Source: Verrucomicrobiia bacterium (lineage in GTDB: Bacteria; Verrucomicrobiota; Verrucomicrobiia; Chthoniobacterales; UBA6821). Taken from it: a DNA stretch of 64,000 nucleotides. The notes beneath the pieces were generated by a model, which did not search any database, was not told where the DNA came from, and saw only the letters and a program-made list of their open reading frames with translations. A program made the position numbers and the translations under genes. This document shows positions 229 through 59,313 of the stretch, piece after piece. Every line of letters begins with the position of its first letter. Position 1 is the first letter of the stretch. The DNA lies in assembly GCA_026398175.1 (NCBI GenBank), contig JAPLTJ010000121.1:3357-67356 (forward strand), given 5' to 3'.

Positions 229-279
229 GCCAAAGAACGGAATAGCCACAAAAGAACGCAAAGAACGCAAAGAAAAGAC
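229..279. repeat. Tandem-word arm (AAAGAACGC period 9), left partner
   Basis: GCCAAAGAACGGAATAGCCACAAAAGAACGCAAAGAACGCAAAGAAAAGAC starts 10 nt after the lspA stop. It is about three-quarters complementary (hand alignment) to 738-778. Confidence 0.55.
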
Positions 280-300
280 AAAAAATGAGCCGCTAGTGGA

Positions 301-660
301 TTATTTTATTCTTCCCTCATCGAGATCGATGTAGTCAAAGATTGTCTGAATGTCAGTGCGACCTTCATAACCGCATTCCTTGAGGCGTTGTTTGACAAGT
401 TCTGCGGCATCATCATGCCAACCGTGTTTCATCATGAAGGCATTCCAAATTATCATCTCTTCTTCGGTGTGTGCTTTTCCGTTTTTGATGCACCACGCCC
501 AAGCCTCTTCATCAGAGGCTCCAGCAATTGTCACTTTTTTTAAAGCTTCATAATCAACGCCCAAAAAGCGAACGCAAACTCCATCCATTTTTTCTCCAAG
601 ATTAGCAAGATAGGCCTCAGGCAATTTTCCAACTGCATGCAATCGGATTTTATCGAGCAT
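301..660 (-). CDS. DUF5069-like conserved protein
   Basis: 119-aa ORF. The N-terminus MLDK..., the helical acidic body and the W-rich core resemble my recollection of DUF5069. Not searched. Confidence 0.55.
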   Translation of the reverse strand: MLDKIRLHAVGKLPEAYLANLGEKMDGVCVRFLGVDYEALKKVTIAGASDEEAWAWCIKNGKAHTEEEMIIWNAFMMKHGWHDDAAELVKQRLKECGYEGRTDIQTIFDYIDLDEGRIK

Positions 661-737
661 ACGACCAAAGAAGACAAGACTGTGAATTTGATCGTAAGGA
701 CTGCGAGGAATTTGTAAGTCTATTTTTATTTTATTAA

Positions 738-778
738 TTCTTTCTTTGGTTTTTTTGCGGCTATTTCTCTTTCTTCGG
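738..778. repeat. Tandem-word arm, right partner of 229-279
   Basis: TTCTTTCTTTGGTTTTTTTGCGGCTATTTCTCTTTCTTCGG shares the GGCTATT/AATAGCC core with the left arm. A second short partner, CCAAAGAAGA, lies at 661-680 next to the DUF5069 start. Confidence 0.5.
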
Positions 779-1483
779 AGTCACATGATAACTCGCTGGC
801 CAGCAGATTTGGCGGCGTAGGAGCCAATGAACACCGATGAGATCGAGAATGCCATGGCTCATTCTTTTGAAAATCGTATAGTTAGAATTGCCAAAGCGGC
901 GAGGGCGATGGTTGACTGGAAACTGTCCTAACGTGAGGCCTGCATTTTCTAACATCGCAATCATGTAGCATTGCATTTGATTAAAAGGCATGAGAAACCG
1001 AAGGTATTCTTTGCGGATGACTTTGAGCGTGCAGCCTGCATCGCGAACGGTATCGCCAGTGAAAAATTTGCGGACTTTATTAGCGACTTTGGAAGCTATT
1101 TTGACCTGCCAACTATCTTTGCGATTTTTACGATAGCCGCAGACAACATCGTAGTTTTTTGATTCACAAACTAACATCGGAATATCAGCAGGATCGTTTT
1201 GACCATCGCCATCCATCAAGATGCAGAGAGGATGTGAAGCTGCAAGTAAGCCAGCATAGAGGGCTGCGCTTTGGCCCAAATTTTTAGGGAACGAAATCAG
1301 GCGAACATCTTTGAATTTTCTGATCAGCGCTTCAGTTGTGTCACGACTCCCATCATTGACGGCAATGATTTCAGCATCAGGATTGGTGAGGCGTGTTTCT
1401 TCCAAAACAGCAACGACGTTATCTTTTTCATTGTAGAAAGGAATGATGATAGAAATTTTAGGCGAGGGATGAACTTGAGACAT
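761..1483 (-). CDS. Family 2 glycosyltransferase (polyprenyl-phosphate sugar synthase-like)
   Basis: Contains SIIIPFYNE, AVNDGSRDTT and DGDGQNDP (DxD), the typical GT2/Dpm1-ArnC-like core. Confidence 0.85.
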   Translation of the reverse strand: MSQVHPSPKISIIIPFYNEKDNVVAVLEETRLTNPDAEIIAVNDGSRDTTEALIRKFKDVRLISFPKNLGQSAALYAGLLAASHPLCILMDGDGQNDPADIPMLVCESKNYDVVCGYRKNRKDSWQVKIASKVANKVRKFFTGDTVRDAGCTLKVIRKEYLRFLMPFNQMQCYMIAMLENAGLTLGQFPVNHRPRRFGNSNYTIFKRMSHGILDLIGVHWLLRRQICWPASYHVTPKKEK

Positions 1484-1490
1484 GGAGGAA

Positions 1491-1520
1491 GGTTACAGGT
1501 TGTAGGTTACAGGTTACAGG
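1491..1520 (-). repeat. Heptamer arm (CCTGTAA/CCTACAA on the sense strand), 7 nt upstream of the GT2 start
   Basis: GGTTACAGGTTGTAGGTTACAGGTTACAGG fills most of a 46-nt intergenic gap. Confidence 0.7.
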
Positions 1521-1529
1521 AAAAAACAC

Positions 1530-3072: not shown

Positions 3073-3082
3073 GGTTAAAAAA

Positions 3083-3106
3083 GGTTACAGGTTGCAGGCT
3101 ACAGGT
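3083..3106 (-). repeat. Heptamer arm, 10 nt upstream of the start of ORF 2560..3072
   Basis: GGTTACAGGTTGCAGGCTACAGGT is in the same family and orientation as 1491-1520. Confidence 0.65.
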
Positions 3107-3115
3107 AATCATTGC

Positions 3116-3411
3116 TGTCCAAAATAAATATTTCAAAATAAAAAAACGCTACACCTAGACGTCATTCCTGCGAAGGCAGGAAAGAGGGGGCTGTGGATCT
3201 TTATTTTTGTTTTCGCAAAAGTGGCATGATTTCACAAAAGGAAGAAATGCTTTCTTCGAAAAAAGAATTGAGACTTTATTTTAAGCGATCATCAAGTCTG
3301 TGCCGATAGTCGCTGGATTCCAGCGTCCGCTGGAATGACGGTAATGTGTAAATGTAGGCAGAATGTGGTTAGCCAGGCCCTTTCTTCTGTTGGTAGATTT
3401 TATTTTGGACA
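3116..3411 (+). mobile_element. MITE-like repeat, copy 2
   Basis: Same termini. The first palindrome is the variant TTCCTGCGAAGGCAGGAA (3158-3186) and the second is canonical (3315-3341). Confidence 0.75.
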
Positions 3412-3538
3412 AGAGTGACAGGTAATACTACTTGAAGAAAATTTTTTAGTCATTATCGTCAGATTCAGGTATTCTATCAGGATCATTCAAGATGTCGCTG
3501 ATCAAAGTTGGCTGCAATGATGCTCGGCTTTGTGGTTG

Positions 3539-8315: not shown

Positions 8316-8564
8316 ATGCAAATGGTTTTAACAATGACAGAGCGTGGCATTATTTCTCTGCCTAAAAAAATAAGGACTGTTTTAGGTCTTCATGGAAATG
8401 ATCATTTGATTGCTGAGGTAACATCTCAAGGTCTTCTCCTGAAGCAGGCTGTTACGCTTCCTGTCGAGATATATCAAGATGCTCGTGTTCGAGAGTTTGA
8501 TGAAGCTGAAGCAGAGCTTGCTGCCATATTAAAAGCAAAAAAAAAGAAAACAGATCGTAGTTAA
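8316..8564 (+). CDS. AbrB/MazE/SpoVT-type antitoxin
   Basis: Small protein with a SpoVT-AbrB-like N-terminus (ISLPKKIRTVLGL). It lies 12 nt upstream of a PIN gene. Confidence 0.7.
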   Translation: MQMVLTMTERGIISLPKKIRTVLGLHGNDHLIAEVTSQGLLLKQAVTLPVEIYQDARVREFDEAEAELAAILKAKKKKTDRS

Positions 8565-8576
8565 GTTTTCTTTTTT

Positions 8577-8984
8577 ATGAAGATTTTTCTCGACGCCAAT
8601 ATTTTGTTTTCAGCTGCAAAATCAAATGGAGCGATTCGTTTTTTAATCATGAGCCTGCTTGATAAAGAGCATCAGCTTGTAATTAATCTGTTTGTTCAAG
8701 AGGAGGCCGAACGCAATTTAACTGCAAAAGCGCCAGAAGCATTAGAATATTTTTACGATTTGATATTGCGGCTTACGATTGTTCCTTTAACGAACTATCA
8801 GTTGCTGCCCAAAAAGGCTTCGTTTTTGCCACTCAAAGATCAGCCAGTACTTCAAGCTGCACTTCATGATCGTTGTGATGTCTTGCTAACTGGAGATCGA
8901 ACTCATTTTGGAAGATTATATGGTGAGAGAATCGAAAGTCTTGCTGTTTATTCTCCAGGTGCTTTAGCTGATTTAATTTTATAG
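8577..8984 (+). CDS. PIN-domain toxin (VapC-like)
   Basis: Has N-terminal FLDANIL with an acidic residue and C-terminal LLTGDRTHF. The size is typical of a PIN toxin. Confidence 0.75.
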   Translation: MKIFLDANILFSAAKSNGAIRFLIMSLLDKEHQLVINLFVQEEAERNLTAKAPEALEYFYDLILRLTIVPLTNYQLLPKKASFLPLKDQPVLQAALHDRCDVLLTGDRTHFGRLYGERIESLAVYSPGALADLIL

Positions 8985-14443: not shown

Positions 14444-14510
14444 ATTCGCAGGGATGGAAGTAGATAAGAAAAAGAATTTACAGGGATGGAAGCGATGGAA
14501 GGGATACTGG
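14444..14510 (+). repeat. Purine-rich arm(s) after the helicase stop (two sub-copies)
   Basis: ATTCGCAGGGATGGAAGTAGATAAG and ATTTACAGGGATGGAAGCGATGGAAGGGATACTGG. Confidence 0.8.
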
Positions 14511-14605
14511 AAAATACTTTTTCTAAGTTCTGCCTTTTTAAATTAGCTTTCAATAAATTCTGGTGACACTTTTCAAAAAGGAGTTTCAAATTTATTAAAT
14601 TTATT

Positions 14606-14637
14606 CAATCCCTTCCATCGCTTCTATCCCTGTGAAT
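14606..14637 (+). repeat. Complementary pyrimidine-rich arm covering the esterase GTG start
   Basis: CAATCCCTTCCATCGCTTCTATCCCTGTGAAT pairs with 14478-14507 (26 WC + 2 G.U of 30, hand count). Confidence 0.8.
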
Positions 14638-16377
14638 TTCTTCTCGCTTCTGTCTTCTGTTGTTGTTGCCAGCTTCTTGCTAGCGACAGCACACGCCGAC
14701 GTGACAATGCCAGCGATCTTTGGAGATCATATGGTGATGCAACAAGGAACGTCATTGCCGATTTGGGGTGAGGCTGATCCAGGCGAGCGAGTAACAGTGA
14801 AATTTGTGGGACAACAAGCAATGACCACGGCAAGAAAAGATCGGCAATGGCGCGTGAACTTGCAAACGGTTTATCTGAGGAGTTCTCCAGATGTCTTGAT
14901 GGTTGATGGAAAAAATCATCTCGAATTTTCGGATGTGATCATGGGAGATGTCTGGCTCTGCTCCGGGCAATCTAATATGGCGTTTCCTTTGCGAGAAGCC
15001 GATGGAGGAGAGACGGCGATTATTCATGCTGAAGATGGCCAGTTGCGTTTTTTTGTTGTTCCTGAAAAGCAAGCTTTTCAACCTCAACATCAAATGGAAG
15101 GAAGTTGGGAGCGCTGCTCGCCAGAGGCTGCGGCAGGATTTTCTGCGATTGGTTATTTTTTTGGACGCGATCTTCGAATGGCAACTGGCATGCCCGTTGG
15201 ATTAATTGGAAGTTATTGCGGAGGCAGCTCAGCGCAAGCGTGGATGAGTCTTCCTGCGCTTCAGCAGTCACCTTCTTTCAGTCATTATCTTGCAGAATAT
15301 TATCAGGGCGCCCGTGATTTTTCAAAAAATCAGGACACTTATTCTCAGCGAAAAATGGATTATGAGCAAGAGCTAGCTGCCTGGGAAGAGCAGGTAGGAA
15401 CGCCCTATCAAGAAGAACTGGCAACTTGGAAACTCAAATGCAAAGAGGCTTGTTCAAAACTTTGGGCGCAGCCATTAAAACCAGATCCACTTTCGCAAAA
15501 ACCAACACCTCCTTTGCCGCCAGACGGAGGTGTTACGGCGCCAACACTGCTTTTCAATGCTATGATTGCCCCGTTGATTCCGTATGCCATGACCGGTGTG
15601 ATTTGGTATCAGGGAGAGTCTAATGAGAATAGGAAATCTCAGCATTCTTGGATGGCTCAATTTGAGAATAATAGTGTTGACAGCACCGTTTTTTCAGTTT
15701 TTGAATACCGACGTCTTTTTCAACGGTTGATTCGTTCATGGCGTGTAGCTTGGGGAGAGGGACCATTCCCTTTTTATTTTGTGAGTTTAGCTGGATTCCG
15801 TAAGTCAACGTTCGATCCTGTCGAAATGTTGATGGATGATGAAGGGGGCTTGAATCCTTGTTGGGCTTGGTTGCGCGAGGGTCAAGCCGTCGCGCTCTCA
15901 CTGCCTGAGACAGGGATGGCAGTGGCTACTGATATTGGCAATCCTAACGATATTCATCCCAAGGATAAACTTGATGTGGGACGGCGGTTGGCATTGCTCG
16001 CGCGGAAAAATCTTTACGGTCAACAAGTCGTAGCGAGTGGTCCGACTTATTGTTCGATGAAACAAGAAGAGAAAAAAATTCGTCTGACATTTAACGATGT
16101 TGGCAAAGGCCTGACTGTTGCAGCTCCGCCGTGGCGGTATGATGGGACGATCGTGATGCCGCTTTCCCTTCAAGGTTTTGCCATTGCAGGAGACGATCGT
16201 CATTGGTACGACGCTGTTGCTCTCATTGAAGGAAGTGATATCATCGTCTCCAGCGAGTTTGTTTTAAAACCAACAGCGGTTCGTTACAATTGGAAAGATA
16301 ATCCCACGGGCAACCTCTACAACAAAGAGGGATTGCCTGCGGCGTCATTTAGAACGGATTTGGATCAACCGAAGTAA
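14632..16377 (+). CDS. Sialate O-acetylesterase (SASA/SGNH-like) family protein, secreted
   Basis: The GTG start gives the signal peptide MNFFSLLSSVVVASFLLATAHA. GDVWLCSGQSNM is the esterase nucleophile motif. Confidence 0.8.
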   Translation: MNFFSLLSSVVVASFLLATAHADVTMPAIFGDHMVMQQGTSLPIWGEADPGERVTVKFVGQQAMTTARKDRQWRVNLQTVYLRSSPDVLMVDGKNHLEFSDVIMGDVWLCSGQSNMAFPLREADGGETAIIHAEDGQLRFFVVPEKQAFQPQHQMEGSWERCSPEAAAGFSAIGYFFGRDLRMATGMPVGLIGSYCGGSSAQAWMSLPALQQSPSFSHYLAEYYQGARDFSKNQDTYSQRKMDYEQELAAWEEQVGTPYQEELATWKLKCKEACSKLWAQPLKPDPLSQKPTPPLPPDGGVTAPTLLFNAMIAPLIPYAMTGVIWYQGESNENRKSQHSWMAQFENNSVDSTVFSVFEYRRLFQRLIRSWRVAWGEGPFPFYFVSLAGFRKSTFDPVEMLMDDEGGLNPCWAWLREGQAVALSLPETGMAVATDIGNPNDIHPKDKLDVGRRLALLARKNLYGQQVVASGPTYCSMKQEEKKIRLTFNDVGKGLTVAAPPWRYDGTIVMPLSLQGFAIAGDDRHWYDAVALIEGSDIIVSSEFVLKPTAVRYNWKDNPTGNLYNKEGLPAASFRTDLDQPK

Positions 16378-17764: not shown

Positions 17765-17785
17765 CTTACAGCCTACAGCCTATAG
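17765..17785 (+). repeat. Heptamer arm, 14 nt upstream of ffh
   Basis: CTTACAGCCTACAGCCTATAG. Confidence 0.55.
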
Positions 17786-24266: not shown

Positions 24267-24316
24267 GAAGAAATTTAACCGCGAAATACGCGAAAAAACG
24301 TAATCAACATCACTGG

Positions 24317-39310: not shown

Positions 39311-39410
39311 TTCACAGGGATAGAAGCGATAAAAGAAGTTTTATTTTTAGCGCTTTTTAGCGAATTTAGCGGTTATGCTTTTATCTCTCATCCCTTTCAT
39401 CGCTGTAAAT
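39311..39410 (+). repeat. Arm pair in the sufC-sufB spacer, same sequence family as 14444-14637
   Basis: TTCACAGGGATAGAAGCGATAAAAGAAG (starts 1 nt after the sufC stop) and CTCTCATCCCTTTCATCGCTGTAAAT (ends 16 nt before the sufB ATG). The complementarity is weaker (core AGCGATAAAAG / CTTTCATCGCT). Confidence 0.6.
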
Positions 39411-39426
39411 CTCTTTCCTCTTTCTT

Positions 39427-43509: not shown

Positions 43510-43524
43510 GAATTCGGCGAAAGA

Positions 43525-43740
43525 CAGGCAGGAGGCTACAGGCTGGAGGCTAGAAGAGAGGCTGAAGGCGGAGGGCTGAAGGCTGAAGGAAAAGCAATTT
43601 TGAGTTGCTAGTTTATGATTCATGCTAGTTTTCTTTGTGGGCATTCTTTTTTGCCATATAAGAATTGTTTTCCATTAAAATGCGAGAATATCAAACTAAG
43701 TTTTCTTCAGCCTTCAGTCTTCAGCCCTTAGCCTTCAGCC
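43525..43740 (-). repeat. Arm pair (CTTCAGC family) between hypothetical gene 43740..45455 and the MidA-like gene
   Basis: On the minus-strand RNA, GGCTGAAGGCTAAGGGCTGAAGACTGAAGG pairs with CCTTCAGCCTTCAGCCCTCCGCCTTCAGCC as 10 + 10 + 7 bp, separated by a 2x2 and a 1x1 mismatch. The spacer is about 115 nt. Confidence 0.8.
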
Positions 43741-45455
43741 TATTTCAGAATCTCCCTCACATAGACATTGACCGTCCCATCATTTCCCTTTTTAACATCG
43801 GTAATCATAAAAGGGTGATCTTGATTGCGTGCAACTGAAGTCCCTTCAGCAGGAGGTACTGCTCCAGCAGGATAAGCAACGATGATGCGCATTTTTGTGA
43901 TGCCATCGGGTGTCAGCGAGGAATTATTTGATTGGTAGCGGAGGACAGAGCGGTCTTGACCAGAGGCTGTCACCGCAAAATCTCCTTGAAGATAAAGCCG
44001 CTCACCAGCAAGTCCCTGTTCTGCAAGATCGCGAAGTTGTGGTGCAGCGACGAAGCGTCCGCGAGGCATTTTTCCAGGGTCGTATGTTGGCCACAATGGA
44101 TTATTGGAATCAGGAAGAGGGCCTCTTTCGGTAATTGCCATTGGGGTTCCGGGAGCAGGAGCAAACGATGTAGGCGGCGGCAGACTGGATTGATTGGCAG
44201 CAGCAAGAGCTGGTGCCGCTTCTGCTTCGAGAGGAGTTGTTGAAGAAAGGGGCGTTGCTGTTGGAAGAGGCGCGACCTGTTTCGCAGGAGCCACTGGAAG
44301 CGCTACTGGAGTTGCAGGCAGCACTGCTGGCGTGTTCAGAGGAAGTGCACGAGCCACTTTTGGGGCAGTGACAGGCACTGCTTTTGCTGCGCGCGAAATA
44401 TTTTTTAAAAATGATTTTTTGGCAGAGGCCGCTAGTTTGTTAGAAATAATTTGTAAGATAAAGGCAGAGTTGGGCTGCACCGTTTGTTGTGTCCCTTCCT
44501 GCCTAGAAAACCCCATCTTCGTACGATAATCTGCATGCTGTGTCTCTGCCGAAATAAGATCTTTTGGAGGAAGCAAAGGAAGTCCTCCTTCGATATTGAG
44601 GTGAGCCGGTGGTGCTAGTGAAAAGAGAACAGGGCCGCTGCTTGTAGGTCCATAACTTCCATAAAGAAGCGAGATGGTGGTCAATTTTAAATGTCCATCG
44701 GGAAGTTTTTCAACATGCAGGATGGCGGAAAGGTCTAAAGGCTTTTCAAATTTAATCTCTTGGCCTGGAGTGAGCGCCTGCTCTAGAGGATTGAGATCAT
44801 TAGACATTTTTTCAAATTCTACTGCTGGTGCGACAGGCTGTGCTGCTCCACTATTAGTGCCAGTGAGTATCTCGTGTATACTGCGGGTCTGCGCATCAGA
44901 GATTCCTTTCACTTCACTAGCGCGATCGATTTTTGAAATAAGTTTACTGTTTACTGCCGGAAAAACCTGCTCCAAGAGGATTTCTGGCTGGTCTACTGAT
45001 TGAAGCAAGGCGCACATTCCTGGATAAAAAAAATTTTTTTTAGTGAGCGGAAAAGCAGCCAAGACGCGATAAGTCTCGGTGACATAGGGTGTCAAATCGT
45101 GCGTCTGATGATAATTGCGAAGAAAGTTAGAAAGGAGTCGATCGTTTAAGCGTCTCGTTTCACGTTGGCCGAGCGGACCAAAGCGCTCGAGAAGTTGTTT
45201 TGGTTTTAGGAATTCACCGCGCGGTGCTTCTGTCAACTCGAAGCGTTGAGGCTCATCTAATTTATGAAGCCTCATGAGGAGATGATAATTCACTGATTTT
45301 TCAGGATGCCCAAAAACATAGAAGCTTCCTATCCAGCAAAAAAGGGCAAACCCCATCAGCAAGAAGATAAAAATAGTCCACGCAAATATCCCGTCAACAC
45401 CATGGGCGCTGGCTCGTCGTGGTGTGGCGCTAGGAAAACGATTGTAATTTTTCAT
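43740..45455 (-). CDS. Hypothetical membrane-anchored protein with a Pro/Ala-rich linker
   Basis: One N-terminal TM (IFAWTIFIFLLMGFALFCWIGSFYVF), a PA-rich tract of about 90 aa and a C-terminal domain of about 120 aa. Start at MKNYNRF. Confidence 0.55.
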   Translation of the reverse strand: MKNYNRFPSATPRRASAHGVDGIFAWTIFIFLLMGFALFCWIGSFYVFGHPEKSVNYHLLMRLHKLDEPQRFELTEAPRGEFLKPKQLLERFGPLGQRETRRLNDRLLSNFLRNYHQTHDLTPYVTETYRVLAAFPLTKKNFFYPGMCALLQSVDQPEILLEQVFPAVNSKLISKIDRASEVKGISDAQTRSIHEILTGTNSGAAQPVAPAVEFEKMSNDLNPLEQALTPGQEIKFEKPLDLSAILHVEKLPDGHLKLTTISLLYGSYGPTSSGPVLFSLAPPAHLNIEGGLPLLPPKDLISAETQHADYRTKMGFSRQEGTQQTVQPNSAFILQIISNKLAASAKKSFLKNISRAAKAVPVTAPKVARALPLNTPAVLPATPVALPVAPAKQVAPLPTATPLSSTTPLEAEAAPALAAANQSSLPPPTSFAPAPGTPMAITERGPLPDSNNPLWPTYDPGKMPRGRFVAAPQLRDLAEQGLAGERLYLQGDFAVTASGQDRSVLRYQSNNSSLTPDGITKMRIIVAYPAGAVPPAEGTSVARNQDHPFMITDVKKGNDGTVNVYVREILK

Positions 45456-45816: not shown

Positions 45817-45978
45817 GTAACGAGTAAAGAGTAAAGGGTAAAGAGTGCAGAGACCTTCAAGTCATCTCAGTTGTAGTTCATAAAAAAAATTATCCTATCA
45901 GATCAAAATTAAATATTAAAAATAAAATAAACCTACCCAAGAACTCTTTACCCGTTACCTTTTAGCCTTTACTCTGCC
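45817..45978. repeat. Arm pair (GTAAAGA / CTCTTTAC family) in the divergent iscA-mutL region
   Basis: GTAACGAGTAAAGAGTAAAGGGTAAAGAGTGCAG and CTCTTTACCCGTTACCTTTTAGCCTTTACTCTGCC flank a very AT-rich spacer of about 93 nt. Confidence 0.75.
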
Positions 45979-45992
45979 TTTATTTTTTTTCC

Positions 45993-47774: not shown

Positions 47775-47783
47775 AATCACTCT

Positions 47784-48084: not shown

Positions 48085-48108
48085 CCACTGAAGTGAAATA
48101 TGCTTTTT

Positions 48109-48140
48109 CCTTCAGTCTTCAGTCCTTAGCCTGTAACCTG
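48109..48140 (+). repeat. Arm (CTTCAG/CTGTAAC words), 5 nt upstream of the NUDIX-like gene
   Basis: CCTTCAGTCTTCAGTCCTTAGCCTGTAACCTG. The short partner ACTGAAG lies at 48087-48093. Confidence 0.65.
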
Positions 48141-49083: not shown

Positions 49084-49950
49084 ATGGCACGCTACCTTGA
49101 TCCAAAAAATGATTTGGTTTTTAAAAAAATCTTTGGACATCATCCCGCGTTACTCAAAAGCTTTCTCAATGCCATCTTGCCATTGCCAGATGATTGCGTC
49201 ATTGAGAGTTTGACTTATCTTTCTCCAGAAAGTGTGCCTGAATTGGCTGCCTTAAAAAATTCTATCGTCGATGTCCGCTGCTGCGACAACCATGGGCGTC
49301 ACTTTATCGTTGAAATGCAGTTGCAGTGGACGGGTGATTTTATAAAAAGAATGTTATTCAATACTGCTGCGACTTATGTTAGGCAGCTTGAAAAAGGAAA
49401 AAAATATGAGCACTTGAGCCCCGTCTATGGACTGGCTCTGCTCGATGATACTTTTACTTCCGAAGAAAAATGGTTTCATCATTATCGCATGGCCAATGTT
49501 CATGACGGCAGCAAAAATTTAGATGATATTCAATTGGTCTTAATCGAGCTTCCTAAATTCAAACCGAATAATATTGTCGGAAAGAAGCTGACTGTTTTGT
49601 GGCTTCGTTTTTTAAAAGAAATTAAAGATGGCACAGAAGTAATCGATCCTAGCTTGTTTGAAGTAGAAGAAATTAAGGAAGCACTTCGTTTGCTCGAAGT
49701 GGCTTCTTACAATGCAGCCGAGTTATTGGCTTACGATCAGCGTTGGGATGTTGTGAGCTCTGAAAGAACGTTGATCAGCGGCAAATTTGCTGAAGGTAAG
49801 GCTGAAGGTAAGGCTGAAGAAAGAAACACGCTCGTAATGAATATGCATCACGAGGGATTGCTGATGAAGCAAATCTGCACGATTGCTAAGTTATCACAAG
49901 ACGAGGTTCAAAAAATTATTGAAGCTGCGGAATGCAGTCAAATTACTTAG
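49084..49950 (+). CDS. Rpn/YhgA-like PD-(D/E)XK recombination-promoting nuclease (transposase_31 family)
   Basis: N-terminus YLDPKNDLVFKKIFG, D...VEMQ nuclease core and a C-terminal (GKAE)n tract. Confidence 0.8.
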   Translation: MARYLDPKNDLVFKKIFGHHPALLKSFLNAILPLPDDCVIESLTYLSPESVPELAALKNSIVDVRCCDNHGRHFIVEMQLQWTGDFIKRMLFNTAATYVRQLEKGKKYEHLSPVYGLALLDDTFTSEEKWFHHYRMANVHDGSKNLDDIQLVLIELPKFKPNNIVGKKLTVLWLRFLKEIKDGTEVIDPSLFEVEEIKEALRLLEVASYNAAELLAYDQRWDVVSSERTLISGKFAEGKAEGKAEERNTLVMNMHHEGLLMKQICTIAKLSQDEVQKIIEAAECSQIT

Positions 49951-51075: not shown

Positions 51076-52110
51076 TTAAGCCTCTAAGCTCAAGCCTTGA
51101 GTTTTTGGTTTCATTAATTGCAGAGTCAGTTTTTTAAACTCTTGGACCAGGTGGTAGACAATAATAGCTACAAAAAAGGCAAGAAGACTTACGGTGATTC
51201 GTCCATAGGCCACATGAAAATTCGAATCGGGAGCTGGTACCATAAAAACTGAAAAGGAACACATTGCTATGATGCCGCGGAGAATAGGCGTATGATTTGA
51301 AAAGTAGGAAGCAAGCCATTCTAATAATCCAAATAGCCCTGCTAATCCGAGGAGATAAATAGTGATGTCATTTGCAAAAGCAACGATACCTACGAGGAAA
51401 GCCATTGCTACAAATGCTCCCAAAAAATAACCGATCATTTGTTGAAGATAGAGGTTTGCGGATTTTCCAATTTCTAAAAAAGTAATTGTGGAAATGCTTG
51501 CCATGACCAGGCGTCCCCCTTGATCTGTTTGAATAGCCACTTCTAACATAATGGCGATGGATGCCGTAATTCCGATACTAACGATGCTGCCAAAATCTAT
51601 CTTCGGATAAGTTTGAGGTGGTTGATGTTTTTTAGTGAGTGCTGCAGCAAGGTAAGTCATCACAATGGGAACAATTGTTTGAGCCCAGATTTTAAGACCC
51701 TGAATCAGCAGGTCGTTTCCGTAATCCGAGTGAGTGGCCGTTGTATAAAGTGCTAAAAAACAGGCTCCAAAAGCATACGCACTTCCAGGTCCTGAATGCT
51801 TAAAAAAAAGAGCGTATCCAAATGCAGCAATAAAGCCTGCCAGAGGAAAGGAAAGCCAAGGGGCTTGGAAAAAAGCGATCAAGAGAGCCATGCTCGTGAG
51901 GATGCCGAGTGAGAGTGCAGCAAATAGAGCTAGAACATGACTCAATGTGGGTCTTGGCAAGAGAGAGAGCGTTGCAGCCAAACTCAGTGACATGTAGCAA
52001 TGGGGAATTCTAAAACATTCCAATACTAAAACAGTTCCTGCAGTTCCAAGAGCGATGCAGAGTGCTGAAGAAGTTTTCTCGCCAAATTGAAATAGAGAAT
52101 TATTACTCAT
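51076..52110 (-). CDS. Half-size FUSC/ArAE-like inner-membrane efflux subunit
   Basis: About 10 TM helices and 345 aa. It overlaps the upstream HlyD gene by 8 nt (ATGAGTAA), in an AaeB/YdhK-like context. Confidence 0.5.
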   Translation of the reverse strand: MSNNSLFQFGEKTSSALCIALGTAGTVLVLECFRIPHCYMSLSLAATLSLLPRPTLSHVLALFAALSLGILTSMALLIAFFQAPWLSFPLAGFIAAFGYALFFKHSGPGSAYAFGACFLALYTTATHSDYGNDLLIQGLKIWAQTIVPIVMTYLAAALTKKHQPPQTYPKIDFGSIVSIGITASIAIMLEVAIQTDQGGRLVMASISTITFLEIGKSANLYLQQMIGYFLGAFVAMAFLVGIVAFANDITIYLLGLAGLFGLLEWLASYFSNHTPILRGIIAMCSFSVFMVPAPDSNFHVAYGRITVSLLAFFVAIIVYHLVQEFKKLTLQLMKPKTQGLSLEA

Positions 52111-53287
52111 TTTCTTGAATCGATTTAAAATCGTAAAGCGGCGGAACAAAAGGAATCGACTCCGGTTCTTGAAGTAATTTTAACTCCGTGTTGTAAGGAG
52201 TGGTGCGTGTGTCAATGATCACGGTCGCTTTACCTCCTGAACGAAATTCGGGTTGTTCTTTTGATTGAAGGACGATGCGGACAGGAAAGCGTGTTGCCAA
52301 TTGGATGAAATCAAACGTTGGTGGGACAGCAGATAAGACACCTTCTCCGGCGGCTTGGTTTTTTGAGGCGCCGACATAAGGAATGACGCCGCGCGCTATT
52401 CCTTGAACAATACCATCAACGGAAGTTAAGCGTCGTCCCATGATGAAAACCTTAGCGCTTTGTCCTCGCCTGACGCGGTGAATATCAATTTCTCTAAAAT
52501 TGCCCATAACGTACCAAATGCTCGAGTCAACAATGGTGAAGAGCTGTTCACCAGTAGCGGCGTAGGAACCTGGTGCAATTTTAAGATTCGTGATGTAGCC
52601 CTCACACGATGCAAAAACTTTGCAATAAGAGACTCGAAGTTCTGCATTCTTCAGTTCTGCTTCTGCTTCTTCAATGCGTGTATTTCTTCCAGCATATTCA
52701 CCATATAAATTTTCAGCACGAACGACAGCAGCCTCTGCTTCTTTGACTAAGGCTGCGCTACTTTCAGCTTCGGATTGAGATTGTTGAACTTTATCAGCAG
52801 AAGCAAAATTTCCTTCGAGAAGCGGCTTGAGGCGCTCGTAGTGCGCAATAGCATATGATGCCTTGGCCTGACGATCGCGCAAAGTCGCTTTGGCGGCTTT
52901 GATCTGTTCTTCGAGCGCGGTGACTTCAAGTCGAACAAGATTGAGTTTTGCGCGAGCACGAGCTGCTTCTGCTTCGTAAGGACGAGCATCGAGCTTGAGG
53001 ATCAGATCGCCACGTTTGACTTTCTGATTATCAACAACATGAATTTCGGTAATGGTGCCACCGACTTGAGCCGCAACGCCAACAGTATTTGCAAGAACTT
53101 CTGCATCATCGGTGCGAGGACAAAGTTCAATATTATGCCAGGCCAAATACGCGCCCAAGAAGCCTGCCAGCAGAATAAAAATGCGAATGGGGGTTACGAG
53201 CCATTGGAGCGAGCTGTCAGATTGCTCTCCATTTTTAGGAAGAGGATCAGGAATAGCGAGAGATGTTTTTTTTTCTTCAGAAGTCAT
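52103..53287 (-). CDS. HlyD-family membrane fusion protein (AaeA/YdhJ-like)
   Basis: N-terminal TM, coiled-coil hairpin, and lipoyl and beta-barrel motifs. Start MTSEEKK, which overlaps the DUF1656 stop in ATGA. Confidence 0.85.
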   Translation of the reverse strand: MTSEEKKTSLAIPDPLPKNGEQSDSSLQWLVTPIRIFILLAGFLGAYLAWHNIELCPRTDDAEVLANTVGVAAQVGGTITEIHVVDNQKVKRGDLILKLDARPYEAEAARARAKLNLVRLEVTALEEQIKAAKATLRDRQAKASYAIAHYERLKPLLEGNFASADKVQQSQSEAESSAALVKEAEAAVVRAENLYGEYAGRNTRIEEAEAELKNAELRVSYCKVFASCEGYITNLKIAPGSYAATGEQLFTIVDSSIWYVMGNFREIDIHRVRRGQSAKVFIMGRRLTSVDGIVQGIARGVIPYVGASKNQAAGEGVLSAVPPTFDFIQLATRFPVRIVLQSKEQPEFRSGGKATVIIDTRTTPYNTELKLLQEPESIPFVPPLYDFKSIQENE

Positions 53288-53523
53288 CGGGCTGAAAAAT
53301 AGAATATCCAAGTCCAAAGCGTAATGACGGCAAAAAATGCAGGAATCATTAAACCAGGAGGTTGAAAAACACGAGAGAGATGAAGGCGTGATGCCACGAT
53401 GGCCGTTCCCCAGGTCCCAATGATGCCGACGATCATGCACATCAGCCAGCCTGGAAAGTAGGCTCCCCCAATATTAATGAGAGGGTCGTGGTTCAACTTG
53501 ATGATTGCTAAATTTTCCAACAT
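53284..53523 (-). CDS. DUF1656 small membrane protein (AaeX/YdhI-like)
   Basis: 80 aa with two TM segments, located directly upstream of the HlyD gene. The start at MLENL excludes the repeat-derived extension. Confidence 0.7.
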   Translation of the reverse strand: MLENLAIIKLNHDPLINIGGAYFPGWLMCMIVGIIGTWGTAIVASRLHLSRVFQPPGLMIPAFFAVITLWTWIFYFSAR

Positions 53524-53552
53524 AGTGAATAACTGCCAACGTGCCATTGGCA

Positions 53553-53712
53553 GTGTTGAAACGTTGAAGTGTTGAAATGTTGAAACGAGGCTCATTTTAA
53601 TATGTTGCCGTGAGTTATAGAACCAAGACTGTTTTTATTGTCAATTTTTACTGAGGTTTAAAACCTCTGTTCAACGCTTCAACATTTCAAGAGCTGCGGA
53701 GCAGCATTCAAC
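53553..53712. repeat. Arm pair (GTTGAAAN / NTTTCAAC octamers) in the divergent DUF1656-TolC region
   Basis: GTGTTGAAACGTTGAAGTGTTGAAATGTTGAAACGAGG and GTTCAACGCTTCAACATTTCAAGAGC... share a perfectly complementary 13-nt core, TTGAAATGTTGAA. Confidence 0.75.
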
Positions 53713-53746
53713 TTTTTTCTTCTCGTTGCTTATAAAACTAATTTTC

Positions 53747-55300
53747 ATGAGATATCTGCGCGGACTGATTATATATCTTTTTTTCTTTTGGGGAAGTTCT
53801 CTTCTTGCTGCCGTAGAAAGTTCTTTTCAAGAAAAGCATGCTGCCGCTGCGGGACCTGAAATGCTGCCACGAAGTGGGCAGAATCCCCGCGAAGGAGGGG
53901 ATCCAGCTAGCGTTGCTACGACCTCAACTAGTAACTTAAACTGTCGCGAAGCGACTTCAGCGTCTCAGTTTTCTTCTCAAAAAAGTTACAATCTTGGAAA
54001 CTTAATTGATCTTGCGCTCAATAATAATCCTTCTACACGCGCAGCATGGAGTCAAGCAAAGGCTGCTTCAGCCTCCGTAGGAGAGGCTCGTTCTCTTTAC
54101 TATCCATGGGTAAAAACTGGTTTTACTGGAGGGTACGACCAGAATTATCTTCCTCTTGTTGCAGGTCCTAATGTCTACAACCGGACTCAGGCCACCGTTT
54201 TTTTTAGCTTAGAATATATTTTGCTCGATTTTGGACGAAGGGATGCTGATGTGGCGCGGACGATCGCTACCTTCAACGCGCTTGGTTTGACTTATCAACG
54301 GAAGTTGCAAGAGATTATTTTTGCCGTCCAGAAAGTTTATTTTGCGCACGAGGCTGCTCTTTGGAAAAAAAAGGCAGCAGAAACGAACCTCGCTTTTTTA
54401 TCAACCCTAGCTGATATGATTGCCCGAGAAAATGTTACTGGTTTGTCAGCAGGACCAGAGCTGCTCAAAGCACGAAAACAAGTTCTCGAAGCTCAGTATG
54501 AGGTGGAGGCAGCTACGGCGAAGGTCAAAAATACATTAGGAGAACTCTGCGTTGCTACGGGGCTTCCAGCTAACACTCCTTTGCAAATCACAACGACAGA
54601 GCGTCCTGTTTCCACCAAAAAATTACGAGGGGATGCCAATGAATTAGTGCGTCGGGCGCTTGTCTTTCGTCCTGATATTGCCGCTCGTGTCGCAGAGCTG
54701 AAAGCCAGTAAAGAAGCCACGCGACGAGCCATTGCTGATTTTTTTCCTGTTATTAAACTGCATTCAGACTATATCAACAGCACTTTTGGATACACTGCGA
54801 ATGATGGGACCTTGAATGGAACGCATAATAGAAATGGAAATTCTGGAGTGAATGGTTTTGTCATGGCGAGCTGGGATATTTTTGATGGTTTGGAGCGCAT
54901 CTTTAAAGTTCGGCAGCGACAAGAAGAAGATAAAGTTGCTGAAAGAAACTTAGAACAGACAAAGTTGAATACAACACGAGATGTTTGGACTTCTTACAAT
55001 GATAGTTTGACAGCAGAGCAACGTGTTAATTTTGCTGAAGGGTATGTGGCCTCTGCTAAAGAAACATTTGATGCCGTCAAAACGGCCGTGGAAACAGGGT
55101 TAACGAATGTTACTGATTTTGCTGAGTCAGGGAGTAATGTTGCTAATTCTGATTCAGAATTGGCTAGTGCTGTCGCGGATTATTCAACAGCATTGGCTCT
55201 TCTTGCGTTTTCAGTGGGGACCACTACTCCTGCGCCCTCGCGTGTTCCTCAGGACTTGGGAAAGCCCGGGGAATTGAAGTTGAAGGCGTTCTCGTTTTAG
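53747..55300 (+). CDS. TolC-family outer-membrane efflux protein
   Basis: Signal peptide MRYLRGLIIYLFFFWGSSLLA and two OEP repeats with coiled-coil segments. Confidence 0.85.
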   Translation: MRYLRGLIIYLFFFWGSSLLAAVESSFQEKHAAAAGPEMLPRSGQNPREGGDPASVATTSTSNLNCREATSASQFSSQKSYNLGNLIDLALNNNPSTRAAWSQAKAASASVGEARSLYYPWVKTGFTGGYDQNYLPLVAGPNVYNRTQATVFFSLEYILLDFGRRDADVARTIATFNALGLTYQRKLQEIIFAVQKVYFAHEAALWKKKAAETNLAFLSTLADMIARENVTGLSAGPELLKARKQVLEAQYEVEAATAKVKNTLGELCVATGLPANTPLQITTTERPVSTKKLRGDANELVRRALVFRPDIAARVAELKASKEATRRAIADFFPVIKLHSDYINSTFGYTANDGTLNGTHNRNGNSGVNGFVMASWDIFDGLERIFKVRQRQEEDKVAERNLEQTKLNTTRDVWTSYNDSLTAEQRVNFAEGYVASAKETFDAVKTAVETGLTNVTDFAESGSNVANSDSELASAVADYSTALALLAFSVGTTTPAPSRVPQDLGKPGELKLKAFSF

Positions 55301-55323
55301 AATAGTTAATAGAATAATGCTCT

Positions 55324-55452
55324 TGTTCAAAATAAAATCTACCAACATAAGAAAGTGCCTTGCTAACTACATTCTGCCTACACTTACACATTACCGTCAT
55401 TCCAGCGGACGCTGGAATGACGTCTGGGTCTAGCGTTTTTTTATTTCGAACA
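55324..55452 (-). mobile_element. MITE-like repeat, copy 6: 129-bp short form with a single palindrome
   Basis: TGTTCAAAATAAA ... TTTATTTCGAACA. Both end segments of the long form are joined at one GTCATTCCAGCGGACGCTGGAATGAC (55396-55421). Confidence 0.7.
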
Positions 55453-55491
55453 ATTTTTTTGTGTATTCTTTGTAGTTAATAAAATTTTTTC

Positions 55492-57702: not shown

Positions 57703-57731
57703 ATGCTTAAAAAAATAAGGAACCACATCAA

Positions 57732-58403
57732 ATGCAAATTCACAGTTCTATTTCTCAATTGAATGGAGCCGCTTCAGCAGAAGGAACGCCAGCAGCATCA
57801 GGATGGAAGCCCGGCAAGATAGCAGGTCAGGTAGCAGGTAAGATAGGATCGATCTTTGGATTCAAGGCAAGTATTGCTTCTTCTCAACAACATAGTGATC
57901 ATGTTGAACAAAGTAATGCTACACAACAAGAGATTGAAAGTAGAATTATAGGGATTGATAAACACTTGCAAAGCTTATCATCAAAGGGGTCAATACAAGA
58001 ATCTGATCCTCTAAAGAGGCAGCTTCAGCAGGAGAGTTTGCACAACACAAAGATTACTCTTGGACAAGAAAAAGGTCGGTTGCTAGAACAACTAGCCAAT
58101 AAAAATTACAGACTTCCTACAAATTCAAGCAAAACCTCTGCTCCTCCTGGTTCTTCCTCGCCAGTCACTGTAGCGAGAACCCCATCACCTACAACAGGCT
58201 CGCGAGATCCAAAGCAAGTAGCGCTTCAACAATATCAAAGCGATAAAAAACAAATCGCAGCGAATCAAAGACTCATGGATCAGCCAGGTGGTATTTTTAG
58301 TGCTGCCCAAAAAAGCGCGATAGCGCAAGACACCTGGAATCGTCAGCAAAAAACAGAGGAATACGAACAGAAACATCCGGAAGTTTTGCAAAATAATTCA
58401 TAA
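57732..58403 (+). CDS. Hypothetical Gln/Ser-rich disordered protein
   Basis: 223-aa ORF with no signal peptide, TM segment or recognisable domain. Confidence 0.4.
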   Translation: MQIHSSISQLNGAASAEGTPAASGWKPGKIAGQVAGKIGSIFGFKASIASSQQHSDHVEQSNATQQEIESRIIGIDKHLQSLSSKGSIQESDPLKRQLQQESLHNTKITLGQEKGRLLEQLANKNYRLPTNSSKTSAPPGSSSPVTVARTPSPTTGSRDPKQVALQQYQSDKKQIAANQRLMDQPGGIFSAAQKSAIAQDTWNRQQKTEEYEQKHPEVLQNNS

Positions 58404-58411
58404 AAATTTTC

Positions 58412-58440
58412 TTGCCACTTTTTCAATTCACTGTTACTTT
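58412..58440 (+). promoter_or_regulatory. Candidate sigma70-type promoter for rpmI (TTGCCA-N17-TACTTT)
   Basis: The hexamers and spacing were read directly. It lies 10 nt upstream of the rpmI ATG. Confidence 0.35.
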
Positions 58441-58450
58441 TTTCCGCCTC

Positions 58451-58660
58451 ATGCCAAAAGCAATCGCACGTAGTAAAACAAAGAAGTCTGTTGCAAAACG
58501 ATTCAAAATCACTGCAACGGGTAAAGTCATTCGCTCCAAAGCAGGCCGCCGCCACTTGCTGGAATGTAAAAATTCCAAATTAAAACGCAATATGGGCAAG
58601 CGCGCTGTGGTGGAAGCTTGTGATGTTAAACACATCAAAGCTAATCTTCCTTGGGGATAA
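58451..58660 (+). CDS. rpmI: 50S ribosomal protein L35
   Basis: MPKAIARSKTKKSVAKRFKITATGKV. Confidence 0.9.
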   Translation: MPKAIARSKTKKSVAKRFKITATGKVIRSKAGRRHLLECKNSKLKRNMGKRAVVEACDVKHIKANLPWG

Positions 58661-58788
58661 GATTTTCATTGATTCACGGGACTGGATGTTCGTTTTGAAT
58701 GTTCTAACCGGGCGGGTGAGTTCCTGAATCATTAACTAACAAACAGCCTGCCCGAGGAGACTCTTTGCGAAAGCAAAGAGATTTACAT
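58661..58788 (+). promoter_or_regulatory. Structured 128-nt rpmI-rplT spacer (possible L20-responsive leader)
   Basis: CGGGCGGG...CCTGCCCG forms a long-range stem (7 WC + 1 G.U). CTCTTTGC-GAAA-GCAAAGAG is a perfect 8-bp GNRA hairpin at 58765-58784, 4 nt before the rplT ATG. Confidence 0.35.
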
Positions 58789-59157
58789 ATGCCTAGAGCC
58801 ACTAACTCTCCCGCGAGTCGCGCACGTCGCAAGCGGGTCATTGATGAAGCCGCTGGTTATCGCGGTCGCCGTTCCAAACTTTTCCGCTATGCAAAAGATG
58901 CGCGGATGAAAGCCAAGTATTGGGCTTATCGTGATCGTAAGACACGGAAGCGCAATGTTCGCTCACTCTGGATTGCTCGTCTTAATGCAGCAGTTCGTGC
59001 AGAATCAATCACCTACAGCCGTTTTATGGAAGGCATGAAAGCAGCAGCGATCACTCTTGATCGTAAAGTGCTTTCTGATCTTGCCATCAACGATGCGAAG
59101 GCTTTTTCTGTCATCGTAGCTCAAGCAAAAGCAGCGCTAGCTAAGAAAAGCAAGTAA
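58789..59157 (+). CDS. rplT: 50S ribosomal protein L20
   Basis: MPRATNSPASRARRKRV..AKGYRGRRS-like N-terminus and the expected length. Confidence 0.93.
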   Translation: MPRATNSPASRARRKRVIDEAAGYRGRRSKLFRYAKDARMKAKYWAYRDRKTRKRNVRSLWIARLNAAVRAESITYSRFMEGMKAAAITLDRKVLSDLAINDAKAFSVIVAQAKAALAKKSK

Positions 59158-59313
59158 AGAGTGAAGGGTGAAGGGTAAAGAGTGGCTGGCGCAAATAATG
59201 AAATTCCATTTTTCAAAAGACAATATTCTAGAAAAACACGAATTCCTAATTGCTCATTTGATGTTCGATCTTAAAATTCAGAACTCTTTACTCTTTACTC
59301 TTCACGCTTTACC
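59154..59313 (+). repeat. Arm pair (GTAAAGA/GTGAAGG vs CTCTTTA/CTCTTCA) between rplT and pheS
   Basis: GTAAAGAGTGAAGGGTGAAGGGTAAAGAG contains the rplT TAA. It pairs with CTCTTTACTCTTTACTCTTCACGCTTTAC as 25 WC + 3 G.U + 1 mismatch of 29 (hand count). The spacer is 98 nt. Confidence 0.85.

Follow-up and report, generated by a model that had tools for sequence, protein, structure and literature searches.

Tandem-Word Arms at Gene Boundaries of Freshwater Chthoniobacterales Are Probably the Ends of Miniature Inverted-Repeat Elements

The Window and Its Relatives

We analyzed a stretch of 64,000 nucleotides (the window) from a Verrucomicrobiia bacterium (assembly GCA_026398175.1, contig JAPLTJ010000121.1, positions 3,357 to 67,356). 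Its G+C content is 44%, coding sequence makes up about 91% of it, and its genes are of ordinary housekeeping and envelope types. Between these genes lie short blocks of imperfect tandem words, here called word arms, many of them in inverted pairs around an AT-rich core. The arms are probably (we would put it at roughly 65%) the terminal inverted repeats of at least five non-autonomous families that resemble MITEs (miniature inverted-repeat transposable elements) and colonize the minimal intergenic gaps of a clade of freshwater Chthoniobacterales.

The nearest relatives of the window in public genomes are metagenome-assembled Chthoniobacterales (Verrucomicrobiota), and the loci from relatives compared with it are designated L001, L002, L003, L006, L012, L014, L015 and L105–L108. 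L001 is syntenic with the window, a clade-specific protein of 590 aa being 86% identical in global amino-acid alignment (80% in the best tblastn segment), while L002 and L003 are farther from it. The arms are recovered in independent assemblies from other samples, which are 100% identical (L018, L020, L021) or 99.0–99.6% identical (L017, L019), and are therefore not an assembly artefact. Short-read contigs from the same organism terminate at word-arm elements.

The genome is poor in Shine-Dalgarno signals, with a Shine-Dalgarno-like core in only 6 of 53 window genes, and the 30 nt before start codons contain 15% G, against 24% genome-wide. In promoter and terminator scans sigma-70 promoter-like sites were not enriched and no promoter or terminator was called within element cores; intrinsic-terminator-like sites were not enriched in the window either (29 vs. 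22.8 ± 4.7 expected, in 20 kb). An Rfam scan of the window returned no family at gathering score, the arm pairs being covered by sub-threshold matches to generic long hairpins (plant microRNA precursors). No tRNA or tmRNA genes were found in the window.

Tandem-Word Arrays and Their Polarity

A first-pass annotation of the window had described arms of tandem words at eleven intergenic loci, and all eleven carry the feature. Tandem Repeats Finder reports arrays of period 7, 8 or 9 at 251–274, 1490–1520, 3082–3106, 14485–14505/14604–14631, 17767–17782, 43524–43589/43705–43741, 45817–45846/45946–45972, 48110–48124, 53555–53587 and 59153–59184/59283–59312. Seventeen of the 22 period 7–9 arrays are intergenic, in a window that is 9% intergenic (binomial p = 2.6e-14). 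Inverted repeats are present at six window loci, with arms of 30–38 nt that are 75–90% complementary and AT-rich cores of 81–121 nt, and inverted-repeat scores are 6–17 standard deviations above those of shuffled intergenic sequence. The arm observation is confirmed and highly non-random.

The arrays obey a fixed polarity. Next to a start codon they are without exception rich in pyrimidines and poor in G when read in the sense of that gene, and they end about 5–30 nt upstream; next to a stop codon they are invariably purine-rich. Arm pairs occur in ++, --, -+ and +- gene contexts, and the purine-rich arm lies to the left on the + strand in 12 of 12 strong pairs from four genomes, whereas ordinary MITE repeats of the same DNA score about 0.5 on this measure. 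Such purine-to-pyrimidine polarity is invariant under reverse complementation. With arms of 30–45 nt, 75–97% complementary, in units of 110–230 bp, the elements possess the terminal inverted repeats characteristic of MITEs; the spacing between arms varies from 3 to 240 nt across loci.

The annotation had proposed a single class of constant architecture, as opposed to one operator, a CRISPR array or an intrinsic terminator of the classical kind, and we uphold this view. Intrinsic terminators combine a short GC-rich stem, a loop of 3–8 nt and a U-tract, a description that the elements do not match, their loops measuring 80–120 nt in the window. The accompanying statement that U-tracts are lacking is only partly true, as T-runs of 5–8 nt follow several start-proximal arms (3073, 45975, 48140, 53710). 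Its placement of the arms at stop/start junctions proved too narrow, since divergent intergenic regions are bracketed as well (45808–45992, 53524–53746). The words do differ between loci, as had been stated, yet they do not vary freely but sort into about five discrete families, found again in related genomes.

Word Families and Elements of the Window

Family F1 is built of the words CCTGTAA, CCTTCAG or CCTACAG, F2 of CTCTTTA or CCCTTTA, F3 of TTTCAACN together with a 7-bp hairpin, and F4 of CCCTTCCATCGCTTCTATCCCTGTGAA or ATCCCTTCCATCGCTTCTATCCCTGTGAA; the F5 arm reads TTCTTTGCG...TTTTGTGGCTATT, with variants TTCTTTGCGTTCTTTTGTGGCTATT or ...GCGGTTAATTT. These families recur across genomes whose orthologous proteins are only 49–86% identical. 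By inspection, about 20 of the 23 intergenic regions with two arms carry one and the same family on either side. Arms of F1, F2, F4 and F5 lack an internal palindrome, and an adjacent 7-bp hairpin accompanies only F3 and a sixth family found in L003.

An F1 element (43524..43741; arms 43524–43592 and 43701–43741) spans the distance from the stop codon of the 590-aa gene (43740–43742, within the first word) to the start of a methyltransferase gene (43512). Solo F1 arms lie at 1490..1520 (- strand; 4.4 copies of CCTGTAA on the sense strand, filling a 46-nt intergenic region and ending 7 nt ahead of the ATG of a GT2 gene), 3082..3106 (- strand; before the ATG at 3072, with an unrelated MITE of about 300 bp inserted alongside), 17765..17785 (+ strand; the short arm CTTACAGCCTACAGCCTATAG, 14 nt upstream of the ffh start) and 48109..48140 (+ strand; 5 nt ahead of the ATG of a NUDIX gene, solo in L001 too). 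Two elements belong to F2. The one at 45817..45975 fills the divergent erpA-like/mutL region, where each arm is of the CTCTTTAC type if read in the sense of the gene next to it, and the one at 59153..59331 extends from rplT to pheS, with a purine arm (59153–59184) that includes the rplT stop codon, a core of 98 nt, a pyrimidine arm (59283–59312) and a 7-bp hairpin (59314–59330) that abuts the pheS ATG.

The F3 element (53533..53712) occupies the divergent region between an AaeX-like gene and an OEP gene. Its left part consists of a hairpin (53533–53553) and four copies of GTTGAAAC (53554–53587), followed by a core of 82 nt; on the right are 2.5 copies of TTCAACNN (53670–53690), a hairpin (53693–53705) and an extra word (53706–53712). 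The AaeX-like gene is an 80-aa membrane open reading frame (ORF) at 53284–53523 on the - strand (AaeX/DUF1656-like, and so annotated in L105), which overlaps in another frame the start of the listed HlyD-family ORF (52103–53440). The start codon adjoining the F3 arm is the ATG at 53523 and not the GTG at 53440.

Of the two F4 elements, the first (14449..14645) lies between the stop of a DEAD-box helicase gene and the start of a SASA esterase gene, with arms at 14468–14505 and 14608–14645 that are complementary at 33 of 38 positions around an AT-rich core of 102 nt. The second (39311..39412; arms approximately 39311–39336 and 39385–39412) is short and degenerate and runs from the sufC stop to the sufB start inside the suf operon. 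The pair that the annotation had placed at 39311–39410 does exist, but it is degenerate, with 19 of 26 positions complementary and a fold z of -0.6.

In family F5, the arm AATAGCCACAAAAGAACGCAAAGAACGCAAAGAA (229..279, purine-rich on the + strand) lies 10 nt past the stop (217–219) of a + strand ORF entering the window; it is a solo arm, or else it forms the left end of a large element extending to 778. A degenerate F5 element (661..778) lies on the - strand: its purine-rich arm (738–778) overlaps the stop of a GT2 gene (761–763), and the weak pyrimidine-rich partner (about 661–700, with an exact 9-mer at 664–672) precedes the start of a DUF5069 gene at 660. The annotation had paired 229–279 with 738–778; the two arms are of one family, but the whole DUF5069 gene lies between them. 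An F5-like purine-rich arm (GAAGAAATTTAACCGCGAAATACGCGAAAAAACG; 24267..24300, + strand) follows immediately upon the stop at 24266, with other MITEs next to it. Old F5 arms stand after the sufB stop (40840–40875) and before the sufD start (41135–41185), an unrelated MITE of about 300 bp having inserted between them, and degenerate ones after the OEP stop (55301–55320) and before the GH31 start (55455–55491), around a partial copy of that MITE. The list of eleven loci was correct but omitted four, all of F5 type, namely the arm at 661–700 and the last three loci named here.

Distribution of the Families

The word-arm elements are confined to one clade of freshwater Chthoniobacterales. Relatives whose 590-aa protein is 40–44% identical contain 1 intergenic array in 47 kb, and L108, whose PheS is 73% identical, shows no word arms and just two arrays, of 2.1 copies each. 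Within the clade, further modules of tandem words plus a short hairpin were observed upstream of start codons in L003 (1860–1923, 2725–2781 and 9130–9208; AACTTAA heptamers with TATTCGGCC...GGCCGAATA) and in L107 (5410–5480; TTAAACTC octamers with a CTGCCAATG...CGTTGGCAG hairpin whose loop is enlarged), and therefore more families exist than the five of the window. Copies of the F3 word-plus-hairpin module in the window and in L003 precede unrelated genes, are about 87% identical and differ by a compensatory change in the hairpin, a pattern that fits either dispersal of the module or a leader function.

Carriage of the arms by phages was considered and rejected. A 16-mer of F1 gave 72 hits in IMG/VR, mostly single and spread across 29–69% GC, while the 11 hits of an F5 16-mer in the same database are all chance matches without arms. 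Three unrelated phage contigs (L057 1567–1910, L058 8613–8833 and L103 4381–4848) each contain one dense cluster of GGTTACAGG / CCTGTAACC in both orientations; some of these clusters form A-run/hairpin/T-run structures, and they resemble an origin, operator or terminator region more than they do the word arms.

Evidence for Movable Units

Whole elements, core included, recur at unrelated sites and in either orientation for F4, F2 and F5. The F4 element of the window (14449–14641, helicase to esterase) and that of L105 (9815–9990, rplT to pheS) are 85% identical over 163 nt when one is reverse-complemented, compared with 60% in forward orientation (BLAST E = 7e-35; spacer-only alignment z = 12.8). 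The F2 element between rplT and pheS in the window is homologous, again in reverse complement, to the one in the mutL/erpA region of L006 (spacer-only z = 7.5), and two junctions of the single genome L001 share an F5 core of about 45 nt in reverse complement (z = 3.7–4.7). A reading of the cores as unique, drawn from BLAST with 7-nt words that showed no cross-locus similarity, was overturned by added loci and by global spacer-only alignments of both strands.

We found that the same junctions are occupied by different families, or by none, in related genomes. Between rplT and pheS, F2 in the window is replaced by F1 in L107 (PheS 90% identical) and by F4 in L105 (84%), and no element is present in L106 (80%; an arm-poor relative with a canonical terminator in place) or L108 (73%). 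The junction from the 590-aa gene to the methyltransferase gene holds F1 in the window, F5 in L001 and F2 in L002, with filled lengths of 227, 176 or 202 nt, in contrast to a gap of only about 25 nt in L006. At the divergent AaeX-like/OEP junction the window and L105 have an F3 element and a length of 224 nt, L001 and L107 a length of 18 nt. From erpA to the 590-aa gene, an element is found only in L014 (about 150 nt) and L006 (327 nt, with a nested MITE), the gap being otherwise 6–22 nt; the two cores are 91% identical, compared with 51% at the third codon positions of erpA. This coexistence of filled and empty sites among relatives is the insertion polymorphism by which MITEs are recognized. 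Nested F5 copies occur in L001, unrelated MITEs have inserted into cores, and solo arms are found as remnants.

Several observations weigh against mobility. The comparison drew on about 250 kb of the window and related loci rather than on whole genomes, and within it no whole-unit homology at unrelated loci was detectable for F1 and F3; most cores are without detectable similarity, core homology being seen in three family pairs only. The two strains at 99.0–99.6% identity display no insertion, excision, inversion or copy-number change, which also speaks against phase-variable contingency-locus repeats. No target-site duplication could be defined when filled and empty sites were compared by eye, the flanks being too diverged and the element ends ill-defined. 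Neither a transposase nor a full-length parent element with F1–F5 ends was found in the window or the compared loci: the sole transposase-like gene of the window is a PDDEXK_2/Rpn-like ORF without arms, and the RAYT-like gene of L106 is flanked by a repeat other than F1–F5. Some arms and elements are, moreover, conserved beyond synonymous sites. The mutL-side arm agrees at 44 of 45 positions by count between L006 and L012 (BLAST, 93% over 71 nt with flank), and the F3 element is 95.5% identical between the window and L105; together with the core shared by L014 and L006, these cases may reflect recent spread, recombination or function. Finally, third-codon-position identity between the window and L105 is 0.80 in the OEP gene (53747–55300) and 0.59 in pheS (59332–60342), which points to recombination among these lineages, and such mosaics weaken inferences from presence and absence.

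Fit to Gene Boundaries

Junctions without an element are tiny (6–26 nt at the compared sites in the clade, 16–125 nt in the window), so that an insertion of 110–230 bp necessarily abuts both neighboring genes, which yields the layout that the annotation had noticed. In F1 and F2 every word contains TGA, TAA or TAG, and the 7-nt period rotates these through the three frames. The L20 protein is 2–3 residues shorter where an F1 or F2 arm follows, its stop codon lying within the first word, and ErpA is 3 residues longer in L006, where it reads into the arm. Stops in all three frames are not a general property, being present in the F1 and F2 arms tested and in the F4 arm behind the helicase gene but absent from the other F4 arm and from the F5 arms. 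Given the symmetry of the polarity, either orientation of insertion provides the downstream gene with a G-poor leader of the kind that this Shine-Dalgarno-poor genome uses anyway.

Each element, about 110–230 bp in all, has its AT-rich core between a purine-rich arm and the complementary pyrimidine-rich one. In either orientation it places a purine-rich stretch, rich in stop codons in F1 and F2, after the upstream gene and a stretch poor in G and rich in C and U before the downstream start. If the elements are MITE-like, they would be moved by a transposase supplied in trans. The polarity might then persist because no other is tolerated where leaders must be G-poor and unstructured, and the arms of read-through transcripts may be sites of folding or cleavage, as in the Correia repeat enclosed elements (CREE) of Neisseria. 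A bolder version, which we offer tentatively, sees in them possibly the first bacterial foldback-type elements, a MITE superfamily with tandem-word ends whose obligatory polarity evolved to make them portable gene-boundary cassettes that rewire operons in Shine-Dalgarno-poor bacteria. Such a cassette would deliver, in either orientation, all-frame stops upstream and a G-poor, Shine-Dalgarno-independent leader with a promoter-bearing core downstream, and its 7-nt period may correspond to the length that an OB-fold protein (S1 or a cold-shock protein, Csp) or a putative transposase covers.

Arm Pairing at the RNA Level

The annotation had suggested that read-through RNA of co-directional genes pairs the two arms, and very stable long stems are indeed predicted at three such loci (-60.9, -72.3 and -73.4 kcal/mol; z -7.2, -3.8 and -6.9), the fourth, at 39311, barely folding. 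Selection for such stems by the host, with the purine and pyrimidine arms pairing in polycistronic transcripts into RNase III sites or a masked initiation region that insulates cistrons, would have a precedent in the Neisseria CREE, whose RNA is bound or cleaved by RNase III according to PMC2649163. We regard it as unlikely. Pairs of equal quality bracket divergent regions (45808–45992, 53524–53746 and L006 3330–3502) and a convergent one (L003 11672–12010, arms complementary at 39 of 40 positions), where the arms cannot share a functional mRNA, and the claim of an RNA function specific to stop/start junctions is left unsupported. Transition mismatches in co-directional pairs, read on the sense strand, comprise 19 G:U and 25 A:C, i.e., the absence of wobble bias expected under neutrality.

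The covariation between arms that had been anticipated was not seen either. The best match within the family is the partner arm only 6 times out of 18, where chance would give about 4; the arms thus track the family consensus and not the partner, there is no locus-specific co-evolution, and pairing does not appear to be maintained by selection. At several orthologous junctions, relatives, close ones included, hold another family or no element. One orthologous divergent intergenic region has arms of different families (L001, L015). In the mutL/erpA divergent region of eight genomes, arms are always there and their polarity is constant, while the families are F2/F2, F1/F1 or mixed F2/F1 and the spacers measure 3, 7, 24, 24, about 90, 95 or 100 nt; these mixed arms, and spacers that reach 240 nt elsewhere, speak against selected stems. 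RNase III processing, insulation of cistrons and binding of S1 or Csp are possible consequences of the elements that no observation here requires.

Three further readings of the arms were rejected. A pair-specific origin, by co-evolution or a local inverted duplication, disagrees with partners not being mutual best matches. The mirroring of non-repetitive arm features speaks against words having been added to the two 3' ends independently, in the manner of a telomerase. Inspection of the sequence upstream of erpA in seven genomes revealed no conserved TAnnnT at a fixed distance, as a leaderless-promoter reading would have it.

Alternative Explanations

The start-proximal arms could also be regarded as binding platforms in leaders and trailers, on which OB-fold proteins (S1, cold-shock proteins) replace the Shine-Dalgarno interaction and to which the purine arms are secondary. 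The pyrimidine-rich, G-poor arrays close to starts in a genome with few Shine-Dalgarno-like cores would agree with this, and so would the solo start-proximal arms kept at orthologous sites despite differing partners (mutL/erpA in eight genomes, the NUDIX leader in the window and L001) and the F3 module before unrelated genes with its compensated hairpin. CspB is reported to occupy heptamer repeats, one protein on each (cited in PMC4679880), a cold-shock protein footprint is about 7 nt, and the same role was proposed for the TAACTGA repeats of Beggiatoaceae. A single specificity is, however, difficult to reconcile with at least five unrelated word families of periods 7, 8 and 9. Arms also lie behind stops in a convergent region that has no leader (L003 11672–12010), many highly expressed genes have none (rpsP, rpmI, rplT), the same genes lack them in relatives, and the arms travel with their cores as movable units. 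Binding as the reason for the arms therefore seems to us as doubtful as the selected RNA stems.

Improbable to a greater degree is a purely local mutational by-product, with neither mobility nor function, in which replication slippage lengthens intergenic words and one arm is copied from the other by template switching at quasi-palindromes. In many prokaryotes long simple repeats are most often heptanucleotide arrays, which have been put down to slippage (Mrazek 2007, as summarised in PMC4679880), and the mismatch spectra look neutral. Such a process does not account for identical, non-repetitive arm sequences of 18–45 nt (F5 ATAGCCACAAAAGAAC, F4 TTCACAGGGATRGAAGCGAT) in genomes whose orthologous proteins are 49% identical, for homologous cores at unrelated junctions or for some 200 nt of extra DNA in gaps of 18–26 nt, and copy number is constant between strains. 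The least credible alternative is that of invertons, in which a site-specific invertase would use the arms as its recombination sites and turn over the AT-rich core, which would be a promoter. Family-consensus inverted repeats do enclose AT-rich segments upstream of genes, and A-tract motifs such as TTTCAAAA and TATTAAAA are common to several cores; an inverted core, however, was present in neither of the two other strains nor in any orthologous pair, all being collinear. Cores of 3–120 nt are too short for synapsis, the arms are imperfect and variable in length, the neighbors are housekeeping genes (mutL, pheS, sufB, ffh), and no recombinase gene was found nearby. The arms are best explained as the ends of MITE-like elements, whose only unusual trait is that these ends consist of tandem words and have a purine-to-pyrimidine polarity.

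Other Repeats and Genes of the Locus

A separate MITE family of about 300 bp is represented in the window by six full or partial copies of 77–94% identity (2232–2548, 3109–3418, 24375–24533, 40942–41134, 47777–48091 and 55303–55460), with CACTCTTGTCCAAAATAAA ends and an internal inverted repeat of 21–29 nt (CGTCATTCCAGCGGACGCTGGAATCCAG); several copies lie within or beside word-arm elements. Its sub-threshold Rfam matches to Wolbachia WsnRNA46 reach 45 bits (gathering score 65). A 27-nt inverted repeat (TATACCTTTCACGAATGATTTTTAGGA) marks a third MITE-like family, located at 24642–24805 in the window, 9086–9249 in L105 (94% identical to the window copy) and 8527–8984 in L003. Another 27-nt inverted repeat (TTTCCTAACCCGACTTTCACTATTCGA), with a spacer of 123 nt, lies at 28272–28448 in the 5' part of ORF 27915–29177; the epimerase domain of this ORF begins only at residue 178, so its start is probably downstream and the repeat is probably an intergenic element.

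The PDDEXK_2 gene (48991–49950) encodes a "transposase" of the PD-(D/E)XK nuclease family (Rpn/YhgA-like, E = 3e-41) and has no word arms at its ends; it is missing at the syntenic position of L001, and its upstream region is 85% identical to L105 428–590. In L106, the RAYT-like gene (13270–14560; Y1_Tnp, E = 3e-6) lies between the inverted repeats GGGGTCAG-TGTTCAATTTTCAATTT / AAATTGAAAATTGAA-CCCTGACCCC, with CTGACCCCAATT repeats downstream, and the 60-nt inverted repeat GGGGTCAGGGTTCGATTTTC is also found in L002 (4115–4440); these constitute a candidate REPIN/RAYT system distinct from F1–F5. Three paralogous ParE-toxin genes (19739–20255, 22914–23432 and 27452–27967) are each preceded, in what looks like intergenic DNA, by an unlisted small ORF with an ...EELEKEIPS-like end, presumably the antitoxin, and a MazE/PIN pair is present at 8316–8984. 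Relative to the window, L017 (a 99% identical strain) has at 44383 a 33-nt in-frame insertion that duplicates AGCAGTGCCTGT... in tandem; it falls in the middle part, rich in Pro and Ala, of the 590-aa protein, which contains no Pfam domain.

Significance

Word-arm elements make up about one third of the intergenic DNA of the window, by the sum of their coordinates, and they sit among housekeeping genes, inside the suf operon and at rplT/pheS, mutL and ffh. In this verrucomicrobial lineage, common in fresh water, they are a major cause of intergenic turnover that has so far gone undescribed. They also disrupt short-read assemblies, and they can mislead the annotation of starts, stops and regulatory RNAs. 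Since the same genes carry interchangeable leaders or none, the elements also offer a natural experiment on what a Shine-Dalgarno-poor bacterium tolerates just before its start codons. If the polarity rule is a true adaptation, they would be an example of a selfish element that shapes itself to gene boundaries; otherwise they represent an ordinary, if unusually structured, MITE colonization.

Comparison With Known Systems

The annotation had held that no described class has this layout, which is too strong, as MITEs of the Correia/CREE type, REPINs and inverted repeats of the foldback type come close. No known system that we compared fits every defining feature, and in the literature we found no such elements described for Verrucomicrobia and no bacterial foldback-like or tandem-word inverted ends. 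Like the elements described here, the CREE (nemis) of Neisseria are non-autonomous units of about 100–160 bp with inverted ends and a core, located next to genes and variably present among strains. They insert at TA with duplication of the target. CREE, however, have a single conserved inverted repeat of 26 bp, and their core, also conserved, contains a site for integration host factor (IHF), in contrast to at least five families, ends of tandem 7–9 nt words, strict polarity and poorly conserved cores; the IHF consensus, as in CREE or bacterial interspersed mosaic elements (BIME), was found in 0 of 17 cores. CREE can create promoters at either end, according to PMC2649163, and together with the RNase III cleavage mentioned above this makes them the best functional analogue for possible effects on neighboring genes.

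The nearest population-genetic analogue is the REPINs (PMC3116915). As with the word-arm elements, one genome has several families, the spacer of the inverted doublets is less conserved, and the sequences are extragenic and can form hairpins; singlets are read as decayed remnants. Each REP sequence contains a short palindrome of its own, and doublets are set at a constant spacing (71 bp for GI), whereas most arms here, F3 excepted, lack an internal palindrome and their spacing is free to vary. As for the RAYT, the Y1 transposase-like gene of the relative L106 has a different repeat at its flanks (GGGGTCAG...TTCAATT), and the window has none.

The foldback transposons, such as Drosophila FB and Galileo, are described in PMC3573991 as having terminal inverted repeats that are long, with internal repetition of short tandem units, and arms of variable length and a variable middle part, which is reminiscent of the word arms. 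They are eukaryotic, of kilobase scale and served by P or MULE-type transposases, in contrast to arms of only 20–65 nt here. On the other side stand the TAACTGA heptamers of marine Beggiatoaceae, cyanobacteria and Bacteroidetes, together with the cyanobacterial STRR heptamers (PMC4679880). They resemble the start-proximal arms in that 2–6 forward copies lie within a few nt upstream of start codons that usually lack a Shine-Dalgarno sequence, next to housekeeping genes of all classes and with a patchy phylogenetic distribution (PMC4679880). Yet they consist of a single word, with only one inverted pair in the genome, no partner at the upstream stop and no evidence of a unit that includes a core, while the Chthoniobacterales elements comprise several families, of periods 7, 8 and 9, mostly arranged as inverted pairs in movable arm-core-arm units.

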